From contig CAZUCA010000009.1 of the NCBI GenBank assembly GCA_964619125.1, forward strand, positions 804-64,803: DNA of 64,000 bases, written 5' to 3'. The number at the start of each line of letters is the position of its first letter. Within the stretch, counting starts at the first letter, position 1. Origin of the DNA: an uncultured Owenweeksia sp. Its GTDB lineage: Bacteria > Bacteroidota > Bacteroidia > Flavobacteriales > Schleiferiaceae. Shown in pieces: positions 15,508 through 63,435 of this stretch. The position numbers and the translations under genes were made by a program. Under the pieces are notes generated by a model. The model worked only from the letters and a program-made list of their open reading frames with translations. It did no database searches and was not told the origin of the DNA.

Positions 15508-15715
15508 GCAATTATTGAAGATTTTCTAAAGGCGATAACGCCCTAATTTTCTACTGTTTAACCAGCTATTTTAAGAACTATTCTACCCGTCTGGTGGGGC
15601 TTGCAGTAAGGCCTGAACGATCATTTTGTGAACAAAAAGCGGCTATTTTTTTTGTAAAAAAAGCGGAAGCCGAAAAGCTTTAATCAGAGTAGGCACAACT
15701 AACCATTACACAAAC

Positions 15716-32927: not shown

Positions 32928-33023
32928 TTTTGGTAGCTGGGATTGCTAAGTGTTAAAGTTTCAGTCGCTTGTAATATTGAAGATCACTCTTGAGTTATTT
33001 GGTTTCTAACCAATTGCTAAAAG

Positions 33024-33920
33024 ATGATAACACGCATTTTTCTGCTGGCCCTGTTTTCCGGGTGTTTGACCTCTCTATGGGGTCAGGGCGAAAAGGGGAC
33101 ATTGACCCCCCTTAAGATTCAGGATTTTTACTTCCTGCCTTCGCTGCAATTTGCGAGCACCGGCCCCGCAGATTTAATGGCCTTTGATAAACTGGCCCCA
33201 GGCTCGGCAATCCTGTCGAGGAACTATTCGGATTATGTCAGCAGCGACTATAACCTCTATGCTAATTCCAATTTCCAGATTTCGATGGGGCTCGCTCTGC
33301 GCAATAGTGATAAGTCAGAGTATCGACAGAATATGCAGCTACAGATAGGAATGTCGCATACCTCGGCGCTGAACCTGAGCCAGGTCCGCTGGCGCGAAAT
33401 ACGCAAGCCCTATGACACCCTGCTTTCCCAGCAAACCGCAAATCGGCTCTACGTTGATTCGATTACTTCCCATTATGTCGATGCACAAAATGGCTCCGAT
33501 AAGCTGAGTTTACAGGCGGCCCTTGTTTTTCGCAGTAATCCTGCGCTACGCTGGAGTATTTTCGGAGGCCTGGGGGTAAGTGGCGGTTTGTCTTACAACA
33601 GCTTCACCCACATTCATTACACCATGATTAATCGCACTGCCCTGGTGGATGAGACAGGTAGTGAGTATTTCGGCTATTACCCCGATGACCCGGACTTCTA
33701 TCAGGAAGAAGAAATTTTTAGAAACAAGAGTAGCTTCAGCGGATCGGTTTACCTGCCTTTCGGAGTTGATTTTCGCATGGGGGAGAAAAGCGACTTACTG
33801 AAGCGGATGCATATTTATTCGGAGTTACGGCCGGGGATGGATTTTAGCAGGATTCCTGAGTATGGCTACAACACCCGAAGTTTCTTTCAATTCGGATTGG
33901 GGCTGTGCGTTTCAGCTTAA
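33024..33920 (+). CDS. Hypothetical secreted or outer-membrane beta-barrel protein
   Basis: Signal peptide; amphipathic strands; C-terminal FQFGLGL. Confidence 0.6.
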   Translation: MITRIFLLALFSGCLTSLWGQGEKGTLTPLKIQDFYFLPSLQFASTGPADLMAFDKLAPGSAILSRNYSDYVSSDYNLYANSNFQISMGLALRNSDKSEYRQNMQLQIGMSHTSALNLSQVRWREIRKPYDTLLSQQTANRLYVDSITSHYVDAQNGSDKLSLQAALVFRSNPALRWSIFGGLGVSGGLSYNSFTHIHYTMINRTALVDETGSEYFGYYPDDPDFYQEEEIFRNKSSFSGSVYLPFGVDFRMGEKSDLLKRMHIYSELRPGMDFSRIPEYGYNTRSFFQFGLGLCVSA

Positions 33921-39848: not shown

Positions 39849-39902
39849 GTGTTAGGACAATTGCATTGGTCACCTTGCGGGCTCTACGCACAACAGACTT
39901 AT

Positions 39903-41687
39903 ATGCACCAATTTTATATTCCGGTAATGGGATTGTCCTTTACGGTAGATAGTCCCCTCAAGGTGGCAGCTTTTGGAATAGCCTCAGCCGTATCCCTGGG
40001 TAGCGATGCGCTATTGGAGGACATGCGGGCTTATTATTCCAACAAATTTAAGCTCCAATACAACCCTATTTCCACCAAGGAGGAGGATTACCGTGCCCGC
40101 CGGATCACTGCTTACCTCAATATGCTTTCTGGGCTGGTAAAACAAAAGTTTGAGGAACTAAGGAGATCGTCGCTGCAAGCTGATAGCGACCTGACCAGGT
40201 ATCTCGATATGCTGCCCAAGGCCCATCCGCTGAAAGCCCTCTACTTCAGTCTTCGCAGCGCCGGGGAGAGTGAAAGACCGGCTATCGAACAAGGAATCAG
40301 AAATGCTATTGAGCCTGGCTCTGTTGACGTGAATATCATGACGAAGCTCAATAAGCCTGGCTTTGACAGCAAAGGGAATAAGCTGCCCGGTGAGTATGCC
40401 GATGCCCTGGCCGCCCTAAGGGGGTATGCCCGCAGTGAACTGACAAGTGCTATTATTTTTTCGGCCGGATTTAATGCCAGACTGTATTCCTACCTGGAGC
40501 AGTTTGATGATTTCTATCCCGATGCCAGGGGCTTTATCAGGAAAAAGGTGATCCTGAAAGTGAGCGATTACCGCTCGGCAATCATCCAGGGGAAGTTTTT
40601 GGCTAAGAAAGGGATCTGGGTGTCAGAGTTCAGGGTGGAATCAGGATTAAACTGTGGTGGACACGCCTTTGCTACTGATGGCATACTGATGGGACCTATC
40701 CTTCGTGAGTTTCAGAATAATCGCATGCGACTGCAGGAAGAACTTTTTGCCCTCTGTAAGCCGGTGTGGGATAAAAGGAATCCCGGCCAATCCTTTGAAC
40801 GGCCTGAGCTGCGCTTAACCGTGCAGGGGGGCATTGGCACCGGTGAGGAACATCGGTTTTTGATGGATCACTACGGGGTGGATGCCACCGGTTGGGGTAC
40901 GCCTTTCTTATTGGTACCCGAGGCAACCACGGTTGACAGCAGTACCTTAGAAAAGTTAATGGCCGCAACGGCGAAGGACTTGTACCTGAGCAAATCCTCT
41001 CCGCTTGGGGTGCCCTTCAATAACCTGCGCGGTTCAGATAGCGAGCGACAGCGTGAAGCACGGATGGTGAAAAACCGTCCCGGCAGTCCCTGTCTTAAAA
41101 AGTATCTGGTATCCAATACCGAGTTTACCACGGAGCCCATTTGTACGGCTTCACGACAGTATCAACATCTCAAGTTAAAGCAGCTACGCGAAGAGGCTTT
41201 ATCGGAAGATGAATTTCGGACGGCAGCGGATGAAGTGGTGCTAAAGTCGTGCCTGTGTGAAGATTTAGCGGCTACTGCCTATGTGGATTATGACATAAAG
41301 CCAAAGTTGAAACCCGCTTCTTCTATTTGTCCCGGGCCAAACCTGGCCTTTTTTTCAGGCCAGTACTCGCTGCGGGAAATGATCGCCAATATCTACGGGG
41401 AGGCCCCAGCCCTTACCCCCGCCACTCGACCGCATGTTTTTATTAATGAGCTGAAGTTGTATATCGATTACCTGCACGACCAGTGGTCTGAGTTTGGCCG
41501 GGAGATACAAGAAAAGAAAGAGGCCTATCTGCAATCCTTCAGGTTAAACCTGGAGAAAGGCATTCAATACTATCGGGAACTGGCTCCTACCATCAATTCA
41601 AGCTCTTTCAGCACTGATCTTGAAGGGCTGACCCGGCAATTGCAGGATGTGGGTGCTAAGCCTATCGAATTACTGACTGAAGTGTGA
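39903..41687 (+). CDS. Conserved Bacteroidota hypothetical protein, possibly an FMN-dependent TIM-barrel (nitronate monooxygenase/FabK-like)
   Basis: FYIPVMG, ESGLNCGGHAF, QGGIGT, GWGTPFL, CLCEDLA, CPGPNL. Start moved to ATG 39903. Confidence 0.65.
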   Translation: MHQFYIPVMGLSFTVDSPLKVAAFGIASAVSLGSDALLEDMRAYYSNKFKLQYNPISTKEEDYRARRITAYLNMLSGLVKQKFEELRRSSLQADSDLTRYLDMLPKAHPLKALYFSLRSAGESERPAIEQGIRNAIEPGSVDVNIMTKLNKPGFDSKGNKLPGEYADALAALRGYARSELTSAIIFSAGFNARLYSYLEQFDDFYPDARGFIRKKVILKVSDYRSAIIQGKFLAKKGIWVSEFRVESGLNCGGHAFATDGILMGPILREFQNNRMRLQEELFALCKPVWDKRNPGQSFERPELRLTVQGGIGTGEEHRFLMDHYGVDATGWGTPFLLVPEATTVDSSTLEKLMAATAKDLYLSKSSPLGVPFNNLRGSDSERQREARMVKNRPGSPCLKKYLVSNTEFTTEPICTASRQYQHLKLKQLREEALSEDEFRTAADEVVLKSCLCEDLAATAYVDYDIKPKLKPASSICPGPNLAFFSGQYSLREMIANIYGEAPALTPATRPHVFINELKLYIDYLHDQWSEFGREIQEKKEAYLQSFRLNLEKGIQYYRELAPTINSSSFSTDLEGLTRQLQDVGAKPIELLTEV

Positions 41688-41777
41688 CGATGTTGCCGGT
41701 TTTGAGCGCTTGTATTGACAGCGACTGTCAGGTTGCTGAGGTAGTTCCGAAATCCGTGAAACGAATGGATAGGGGGT

Positions 41778-41884
41778 AAAAAAAGAGCGCCCCGGAATGC
41801 TCCGGGGCGCTTGCTTTTCTTAACAAAGGTTGGTCTTTGTAGATTACTAACCCTATTTCCCTATAAATGAAGAACCCTGTTAAG
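41778..41884 (-). ncRNA. Candidate sRNA B (about 107 nt)
   Basis: TTTG (41917-41920), 19-nt spacer, TAATTTAG (41890-41897); ends in the 11-bp stem AGCGCCCCGGA/TCCGGGGCGCT plus T7. Confidence 0.5.
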
Positions 41885-41931
41885 TCCTTCTAAATTAGTT
41901 AAAAAAATTTAACGTCCAAATTACGGCCAAC

Positions 41932-42007
41932 AAAAAAGCGCCCCGATACCTCGGGGCGCTTTTACGAAAACTAAAACATAAAAATGAAAAAACTTGTACG
42001 CTCTTCC
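41932..42007 (-). ncRNA. Candidate sRNA A (about 75 nt)
   Basis: TTTG (42042-42045), 21-nt spacer, TATCTTTA (42013-42020); ends in the 13-bp stem AAAAGCGCCCCGA/TCGGGGCGCTTTT. Confidence 0.55.
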
Positions 42008-42150
42008 AGTCGTAAAGATAATACAAAAGAAAGAGCTTTGCCAAAAAGCGAGAACATGATAGTCTGGCTCTATCATCAGGGGTCTCATGATAGTTTAATA
42101 TGGAGGTCCCAAACTTGTTTGCTCAGACCTCCGGGCTTATCTTTGACCAT

Positions 42151-42248
42151 AGCATTGGGGCACTACCTAAGCCCCGTTGCATTTCGAAGTTTTAATTAGG
42201 TGTTATTTGGTTAGTAATCTTGAGAAGGCTCCGGTGGGAGCCTTTTCT
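42151..42248 (+). ncRNA. Candidate sRNA C (about 98 nt), or a terminated leader of the nitrilase gene
   Basis: TATCTTTG at 42138-42145; GGGGC/GCCCC hairpin; terminator AGAAGGCTCC/GGAGCCTTTT at 42223-42246. Confidence 0.5.
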
Positions 42249-42264
42249 GCTTAAAGTATTGCTT

Positions 42265-43044
42265 ATGGCCGATTTCCGACTTACCCTGGTTCAGCCCAAC
42301 CTGGTTTGGGAGAATCCTGATGCCAATTTTAAAAAGATTTCCGCCCTGCTGGCTGATAAGCCAAAGACGGATCTGATTCTCCTGCCTGAGATGTTTCCCA
42401 CTGGCTTCAGTATGAACCCCGCCCAGAATTTTGAAGAGGACCATGGTCCGGCGCTGCGATATATGCAGGAGCTGGCTGCAGAGCACAATGCTGCGGTCAG
42501 TGGCAGTGTGATTGTGAAAGAAGGTGAAAACTATTACAACCGCCTGTATTTTGTTTGGCCGGAAGGGCGGTATAGGCACTATGACAAAAGGCATCTCTTT
42601 AGCTATGCGGGTGAGGAAAAGGTATACAATGCCGGCGAGCAGCATTTGCTGGTGGAGCACCGGGGCTGGAAGCTCATGCCCCTGATTTGTTATGACCTGC
42701 GCTTTCCGGTTTGGTGCCGAAATACCGCTGCAGTAGACCTGCAGTTTTATGTGGCCAATTGGCCCGAGCGACGGGCCACGGCCTGGAAATCCCTGCTGAA
42801 GGCCCGCGCCATCGAAAATATGTGCGTGGTGGCGGGGCTCAACCGCGTCGGTGCCGATGCCAATGAGGTAGAGCACTCGGGCGACTCAATGGTTTTTGAT
42901 GAATTGGGTGAGCCACTCTTAGAACTTAGCCCCTCTGTGGAAGAGTGTGCCACGGTGGTACTGGATCAGGAAAAGCTGCGCAAAAGCCGCGAGCGTTTTC
43001 GCTTTCTCGATGACCGTGATCACTTCACTTTTTTACGGCCCTGA
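42265..43044 (+). CDS. Nitrilase-family amidohydrolase (YafV/omega-amidase-like)
   Basis: LPEMF (Glu), YDKRHLF (Lys), LICYDLRFP (Cys), VANWP. Start moved to ATG 42265. Confidence 0.92.
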   Translation: MADFRLTLVQPNLVWENPDANFKKISALLADKPKTDLILLPEMFPTGFSMNPAQNFEEDHGPALRYMQELAAEHNAAVSGSVIVKEGENYYNRLYFVWPEGRYRHYDKRHLFSYAGEEKVYNAGEQHLLVEHRGWKLMPLICYDLRFPVWCRNTAAVDLQFYVANWPERRATAWKSLLKARAIENMCVVAGLNRVGADANEVEHSGDSMVFDELGEPLLELSPSVEECATVVLDQEKLRKSRERFRFLDDRDHFTFLRP

Positions 43045-63350: not shown

Positions 63351-63432
63351 GCCCAGGTGGCGGAATTGGTAGACGCGTTGGTCTCAAACACCAATATCTT
63401 CGGATGTACCGGTTCGACTCCGGTCCTGGGCA
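63351..63432 (+). tRNA. trnL: tRNA-Leu (CAA)
   Basis: Acceptor GCCCAGG/CCTGGGC, D-loop GGAATTGGTAGAC, anticodon stem TTGGT/ACCAA with loop CTCAAAC, long variable arm, TTCGACT T-loop; discriminator A; CCA not encoded. Confidence 0.97.
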
Positions 63433-63435
63433 CTG

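Follow-up and report, generated by a model that had tools for sequence, protein, structure and literature searches.

The closest described system, in logic, to the RNAs reported here is that of the small RNA (sRNA) GibS and the FopS family from Bacteroides thetaiotaomicron. These Bacteroides sRNAs have housekeeping-type promoters, a conserved seed and an intrinsic terminator, and they act by repression at start codons (PMC11697453). Bacteroides sRNA families are also known ligands of the RRM protein RbpB, and the structure of FopS has, according to its paper, been deposited in Rfam (PMC11697453).

Three short RNAs, A, B and C, are predicted in a 64,000-nucleotide stretch of DNA from an uncultured Owenweeksia sp. 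The whole of this stretch is called the window, and coordinates refer to it unless another locus is named. Like GibS and FopS, the three are Bacteroidota RNAs with promoters of the housekeeping-sigma type, in which a conserved seed region is followed by an intrinsic terminator, and related RNAs have part of the seed in common. GibS and FopS target mRNAs around their start codons, and the same mode of action is inferred for A, B and C. There are differences as well. FopS has 14 paralogues, whereas A, B and C have one copy each. The motif that B shares with C would lie within a closed loop, in contrast to the free 5' end in GibS and FopS. Finally, A, B and C are restricted to marine and environmental Flavobacteriales, unlike the Bacteroides RNAs. 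The original prediction had pointed to paralogous sRNA families of Bacteroides that are bound by RRM proteins. A, B and C do not belong to the FopS/GibS family: covariance models (Rfam 15) and sequence comparison gave no match, and the three RNAs are single copies rather than scattered paralogues.

Leader-derived sRNAs can also arise through premature termination, as in the case of the riboswitch-derived SreA and SreB of Listeria. C resembles these in being a putative promoter-proximal leader with a terminator just before an open reading frame (ORF), so that a short RNA and an mRNA would come from one promoter. It differs in having no recognised ligand-binding domain, and its activity in trans is only putative.

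The three units are located in a gap of 577 bp (41688-42264) between an ORF of 612 amino acids (aa) and a gene for a carbon-nitrogen (CN) hydrolase; the original prediction had put its length at 530 bp. The G+C content falls to about 0.38-0.44 in the gap, compared to about 0.5 in the flanks. The promoter-terminator units themselves were found where they had been predicted, with hairpins T1, T2 and T3 and the corresponding TTG and -7 elements. The flanking genes and predicted features are as follows.

39849-41687, plus strand: 612-aa ORF between sdhB and the sRNA cluster; no Pfam domain.
41778-41885, minus strand: predicted sRNA B, about 108 nt, composed of closing helix P1, an enclosed core and terminator T1.
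41812-41785, minus strand: terminator T1 of B, with its U-run at 41784-41778.
41884-41875 with 41829-41819, minus strand: predicted closing helix P1 of B, in which CUUAACAGGG pairs with CCUUUGUUAAG.
41852-41841, minus strand: shared motif of B, GGUUAGUAAUCU, within the conserved core of 45 nt that P1 encloses.
41890-41919, minus strand: predicted promoter of B; TTG at 41919-41917, 19-nt spacer, -7 box TAATTTAG at 41897-41890.
41929-42007, minus strand: predicted sRNA A, about 75-79 nt, composed of a 5' hairpin, a U-rich core and terminator T2.
41963-41934, minus strand: terminator T2 of A, with its U-run reaching to about 41929.
41990-41964, minus strand: unchanging U-rich core of A, UUUUCAUUUUUAUGUUUUAGUUUUCGU, 27 nt.
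42007-41986, minus strand: predicted 5' hairpin of A, in which GAAGAGC pairs with GUUUUUUC.
42013-42044, minus strand: predicted promoter of A; TTG at 42044-42042, 21-nt spacer, -7 box TATCTTTA at 42020-42013; a promoter program also flags the site as sigma-70-like.
42115-42145, plus strand: predicted promoter of C and, apparently, of the CN-hydrolase gene; TTG at 42115-42117, 20-nt spacer, -7 box TATCTTTG at 42138-42145.
42150-42250, plus strand: predicted RNA C, about 100 nt, composed of a 5' hairpin, a conserved core and terminator T3.
42152-42180, plus strand: predicted 5' hairpin of C, with ACCUAA in the loop.
42196-42220, plus strand: end of the conserved core of C, UUAGGUGUUAUUUGGUUAGUAAUCU, with the shared 12-mer at 42209-42220.
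42222-42247, plus strand: terminator T3 of C, a GC-rich hairpin and T-run.
42265-43044, plus strand: CN-hydrolase gene (Pfam PF00795, E = 1.4e-32).

A and B form a tandem pair on the minus strand and are followed by no other gene in that orientation, and C is divergent from A. Genes for the flavoprotein and iron-sulfur subunits of succinate dehydrogenase lie farther upstream of the gap. Members of the clade usually have sdhB first, followed by B and A in the opposite orientation, with C and the CN-hydrolase gene last. L061, which resembles the window most closely in its B unit and sdh region, lacks the 612-aa gene. Because the B terminator there follows sdhB by about 60-70 nt, the 612-aa gene looks like an insertion specific to the lineage of the window.

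The spacer between the divergent promoters of A and C contains palindromic repeats at 42056-42093 (CATGATAG...CTATCATC...CATGATAG), and GGAGGTC...GACCTCC at 42104-42132 overlaps the -33 region of C. The palindromes of 42056-42132 were not seen in the relatives L059 and L068, and they may be an operator or a product of chance. A 19-nt inverted repeat (79% complementary) relates 41735-41753, just past the B terminator, to 42154-42172 in the 5' hairpin of C; it was seen in the window only.

Conservation can be followed well beyond the window. The original prediction had proposed a sequence search across Flavobacteriales. An exact 20-mer of B occurs in 35 contigs of a collection of species-representative genomes. 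The carriers are mostly labelled Schleiferiaceae, Cryomorphaceae, Owenweeksia or Croceimicrobium; several are labelled only Flavobacteriales, Bacteroidia or Bacteroidetes, and one bin is labelled Roseivirga. An exact 22-mer of A occurs in 31 contigs, and all but one of these coincide with B loci, A preceding B in a tandem arrangement. For C, BLAST together with fuzzy matching gave 10 of these genomes, and a metagenome scan gave 3 further contigs; C is divergent from A in every case. In the window and the examined loci, nhmmer profiles found no extra copies of any of the three. Four sequences labelled as complete chromosomes (OZ257133.1, NZ_OZ245832.1, OZ243107.1 and OZ245876.1) have a single match each to the A core and to the B core, and the matches in OY970262.1 and CP051243.1 are single too. 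The B core was not found in a viral collection.

One further candidate in the window was rejected. A C-like sequence, GAGTTATTTGGTTTCTAACC, at 32992-33011 (plus strand) has 4 mismatches and belongs to the unrelated leader of a gene that starts at 33024. It is probably a chance match, about 0.05 of which are expected in the window.

The cores of the three RNAs are constant among genomes whose flanking CN-hydrolase proteins have diverged. The nearest CN-hydrolase proteins, in metagenome-assembled genomes (MAGs) of Flavobacteriales, are only 46-57% identical. In the three closest loci (L001-L003), where the CN hydrolases are 55-57% identical, the DNA matching window positions 41819-42011 is about 75% identical over 206 nt. 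The 27-nt core of A is identical in 31 of 31 copies, and 22 consecutive positions of C, TTAGGTGTTATTTGGTTAGTAA, are unchanging in 12 aligned copies. The cores of A and B are each unchanged in loci that were picked with the pattern of the other unit, so their invariance is not an artefact of selection.

Promoter elements, which the original prediction had described as Bacteroidota-like, are kept together with the cores. All three RNAs would be read from the Bacteroidota promoter type, TTG followed after 19-21 nt by TAnnTTTG. A -7 box of the form TAnnTTTG or TAnnTTTA stands 23-28 nt upstream of the A core in all 31 copies. For B, 30 of 36 copies have TAnnTT[TA][GA] and the other 6 the close variant TAnnTTGG, with a spacer of 19 nt to the TTG in 20 copies. 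All 13 copies of C have the box at a fixed distance from the core, 9 of them with a 20-nt spacer.

The terminators show the opposite behaviour in their letters, since stems vary while cores do not. In every copy of A, B and C, a GC-rich hairpin is followed by a T-run on the inferred strand, which bears out the claim of strong intrinsic terminators. Among the copies there are 30 distinct stems for A, 25 for B and 12 for C. Varied stems with kept pairing are the pattern that would be expected of terminators kept for their shape.

The predicted folds are more stable than those of shuffled controls for A (-32.1 kcal/mol, z = -5.8), B (-39.2 kcal/mol, z = -5.0) and C (-38.7 kcal/mol, z = -4.3). Each RNA would consist of a stem at the 5' end, then the conserved core, then the terminator. 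Evidence for the individual helices is provided by changes on both sides of a pair. In a 35-sequence alignment of B, 4 of the 8 pairs of P1 have changed on both sides with pairing kept, a number that 0 of 500 shuffles reach, and 97.5% of the pair positions in the tested structure are standard base pairs. The T3 hairpin of C has 9 pairs with compensatory changes. The 5' hairpin of A is rebuilt with other bases in its two most divergent copies (L056 and L057); downstream of this hairpin come about 22 unpaired nucleotides that do not vary.

The three RNAs are related through short modules. The exact 12-mer GGTTAGTAATCT of the original prediction was confirmed: it has exactly two copies in the 64 kb, at 41841-41852 (minus strand) and 42209-42220 (plus strand). 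On the transcribed strands, B and C thus have the motif GGUUAGUAAUC in common, and the bases just upstream are loosely alike (UAUAGG and UAUUAGG). The link extends to the clade through GGTTAGTAAT(C), which is unchanged in 36 of 36 copies of B, and GGTTAGTAA, which is unchanged in 12 of 12 aligned copies of C. By our own estimate, a 12-mer common to the transcribed strands of two conserved cores, each about 45-50 nt long, would arise by chance with a probability of about 1e-4. A and B, in turn, share a U-rich box around CAU, UUC/UUUCAUUUxUA, which a repeat finder gave as ACAAGUUUUUUCAUUUUUA in A and ACAGGGUUCUUCAUUUAUA in B; its CAU is the complement of a start codon. The near-identical A and B stems that had first been taken to join these two units are real within the window, where GCGCCCCG is found in both arms of T1 and of T2. 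They fail as a link between A and B: the two stems are unrelated in other species, and the likeness, on this comparison of sequences, is a lineage-specific coincidence.

Known RNA families do not account for the locus. A cmscan of the whole window against Rfam 15, the second comparison that had been proposed at the outset, found no family at the gathering threshold anywhere in the gap. When the limit was relaxed to E = 10 for 41500-42500, only terminator-driven matches below the threshold appeared (rimP, rteR and BSnc120). RteR (RF04181) is the best-scoring Bacteroides sRNA model on A, and A was rejected as a member: the model scores 32.1 bits where 72 are needed for gathering, with an alignment carried by the terminator hairpin alone. 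The literature yielded no description of these RNAs, nor of any sRNAs in this clade. The trio is a set of previously undescribed, clade-restricted small RNAs, that is, new families of a familiar kind of regulator. Elsewhere in the window there are a DUF805b RNA motif (RF02914) at 15660-15695 on the plus strand, with 49.9 bits against a gathering score of 35.6, and a tRNA-Leu (CAA) gene at 63351-63433 on the plus strand.

Expression can be judged from environmental RNA. The window's own organism was found in one sediment DNA run and in no RNA run. Conserved parts from its relatives are present in many metatranscriptomes, under marine, seawater, sediment, soil, mangrove, biofloc, coral and salt-marsh labels. 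Contigs of 241-249 nt in three of these (X8, X13 and X19) reach from the A promoter region to the B terminator. Others, of 195, 153 and 292 nt (X30, X34 and X31), end within the A 5' hairpin and fail to reach the predicted start by 16-18 nt. In X19, a contig of 103 nt corresponds to C from the 5' hairpin to the terminator. The A+B contigs of 195-249 nt and the C contig of 103 nt are thus short, centre on the units and have their bounds near the predicted ends. Some RNA contigs include the A -7 box or the A-B spacer, which suggests read-through or an extra start upstream. All these contigs are assembled and unstranded, they stem from relatives, and DNA may be present in libraries of this kind; they support expression and leaky termination at T2 and T3, and are not proof of transcript ends.

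Taken as genes, A, B and C each have their own promoter, an intrinsic terminator and no coding potential, as is general for stand-alone trans-acting bacterial sRNAs. We are highly confident that they are real, separately promoted non-coding RNA genes. We read A and B as putative stand-alone trans-acting sRNAs. The sRNA interpretation of the original prediction is supported by conserved cores, promoters, varied but paired terminators and the RNA contigs of relatives, with an amendment: C appears to be a 5' leader of the CN-hydrolase mRNA as well, and not only a free-standing sRNA.

The case for a leader comes from the position of C. It adjoins the CN-hydrolase gene, directly upstream, in 13 of 13 loci. 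The distance from T3 to the ATG is 15-30 nt across these loci (15-18 nt in the window), and they usually have no separate -7 box in between. Most C loci leave neither room nor motif for another promoter there, so the CN-hydrolase mRNA would have to start at the C promoter and read through T3. We read C, from its sequence context, as a probable terminator-containing 5' leader of this mRNA that would also give rise to a short RNA with the motif of B. Termination at T3 would release the short RNA, while read-through would give the CN-hydrolase mRNA. In this way, C would tie the expression of the CN hydrolase to the supply of a B-like regulator.

The whole explanation, in which three sRNAs have their own promoters and terminators, C is also the CN-hydrolase leader, and pairing in trans occurs at start regions, is probably correct. 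Its mechanistic part, antisense pairing at translation start regions by A, B and the terminated form of C, is the model we favour, and we hold it tentatively. By analogy with GibS and FopS, the cores would pair in trans with A-rich translation start regions of mRNAs and lower their translation. The complement of the unpaired core of A resembles an idealised A-rich Bacteroidota leader followed by AUGAAAAAA. At one locus (L063 3375-3754, minus strand; Owenweeksia sp. IP29b_bin.152), the A core is complementary over 27 of 27 nt to ACGAAAACTAAAACATAAAAATGAAAA, which makes up the complete leader and start of the gene for a small secreted protein of 119 aa. Orthologue and protein database searches with the 119-aa protein returned only the protein itself; since the gene has no homologues, this pairing lead is not generalisable. 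Scored as duplexes with 55 start regions of the window, A, B and C stayed at noise level. When 3821 ORF starts in all DNA examined were scanned in register, only the L063 gene stood out from noise. sdhC was rejected as a target of A, as its start region has no conserved complementarity to A.

Among the alternatives to this antisense model, the one that survives best places C mainly in cis. C would then be a leader of the CN-hydrolase gene, such as a riboswitch or a protein- or RNA-dependent attenuator, with the short RNA as a by-product, and B could be an orphan that is related to this sensor core. Besides the close and constant linkage to the gene described above, a 410-nt contig in X10 starts within C and runs more than 250 nt into the CN-hydrolase gene. 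C also contains UUAGGU twice and ACCUAA once, which makes two mutually exclusive pairings possible, and ACCUAA is kept in the C of the window although the 5' hairpin there is rebuilt. The bases of UUAGGU and ACCUAA are invariant across copies, however, and covariation is therefore uninformative about these candidate switch helices. Other observations also count against a mainly cis role: no Rfam riboswitch or leader family matches C; many relatives lack C and have a -7 box right before the CN-hydrolase ATG instead; and B has the same motif without a downstream gene. A further point against it is a Cryomorphaceae MAG (L034 1626-1917, minus strand) that has C twice in tandem ahead of its CN-hydrolase gene; both copies have a -7 box and a terminator of their own. 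On balance, a mainly cis-acting C is possible and somewhat unlikely.

Alternately, A, B and C may bind or titrate a protein, for instance an RNA-binding protein of the RRM or KH type, rather than pair with mRNAs. The unchanging stretches of A (27 nt) and B (about 47 nt) are unusually long. Stretches of 27-47 nt exceed the length of an ordinary seed and could point instead to protein binding or to a folded core. Short motifs are also repeated, with AUAGGG twice in B and UUAGGUGUUA twice in C, and binding of Bacteroides sRNA families to the RRM protein RbpB offers a precedent (PMC11697453). Yet the repeated motifs could equally be pairing elements, and both modes could hold together. There is no known protein partner, and a motif search found no RRM-type RNP1 motif encoded in the window. 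We regard protein binding in place of pairing as unlikely.

More unlikely still is a stronger form of the sensor idea, in which C and, by descent, B would represent an undescribed class of sensor RNA. Its core, UAGG...GGUUAGUAAUC, would bind a metabolite or protein linked to an omega-amidase-type CN hydrolase and so set the balance between termination and read-through at T3 in C, with B as a stand-alone copy acting in trans.

It is very improbable that the hairpins do no more than terminate the flanking genes, with ordinary spacer in the remainder of the gap. In the window, T1 and to a lesser degree T2 have enough symmetry to work on both strands; T1 has a usable plus-strand T-tract 98 nt past the stop of the 612-aa gene, and the B terminator of L061 comes right after sdhB. 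In relatives, by contrast, the T-run past the B hairpin is good on the sRNA strand only: in L001, the opposite strand reads TTTAAAATACC, which is T-poor, and this settles in which direction transcription runs. No gene ends upstream of T2 or T3. Moreover, the cores upstream of the hairpins are constant across the clade while the stems vary, and the promoters are kept at a fixed distance. The comparative data already contradict this reading, which the original prediction had named as what would overturn it.

A small-protein or type I toxin-antitoxin role is hardly credible: the strand opposite A does resemble a gene start (AAAAATGAAAAAACTT, MKKL...) and a 71-aa ORF is open there in the window, but this antisense ORF is rejected as a gene since it ranges from 5 to 71 aa among species, does not keep its frame and is unconserved, the 71-aa and 55-aa ORFs of the window have no Pfam match, and the conserved cores of B and C contain no AUG on their transcribed strands. 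As originally predicted, no credible protein is encoded on the transcribed strands; ORFs overlap the units, but no predicted transcript encloses an ORF of the same strand.

Post-transcriptional control in Bacteroidota beyond the gut Bacteroides is little known, and for the mostly uncultured Schleiferiaceae/Owenweeksia group nothing was found in the literature. The locus described here offers three well-defined, highly conserved RNAs with modular common motifs and a fixed place between the succinate dehydrogenase and CN-hydrolase genes. Interest in the trio would rise if C were a regulated sensor, or if the long unchanging cores reflected something besides pairing with mRNAs. The three RNAs are candidates for new Rfam families and, for organisms without Shine-Dalgarno-led initiation, a practical way into the study of sRNA regulation.
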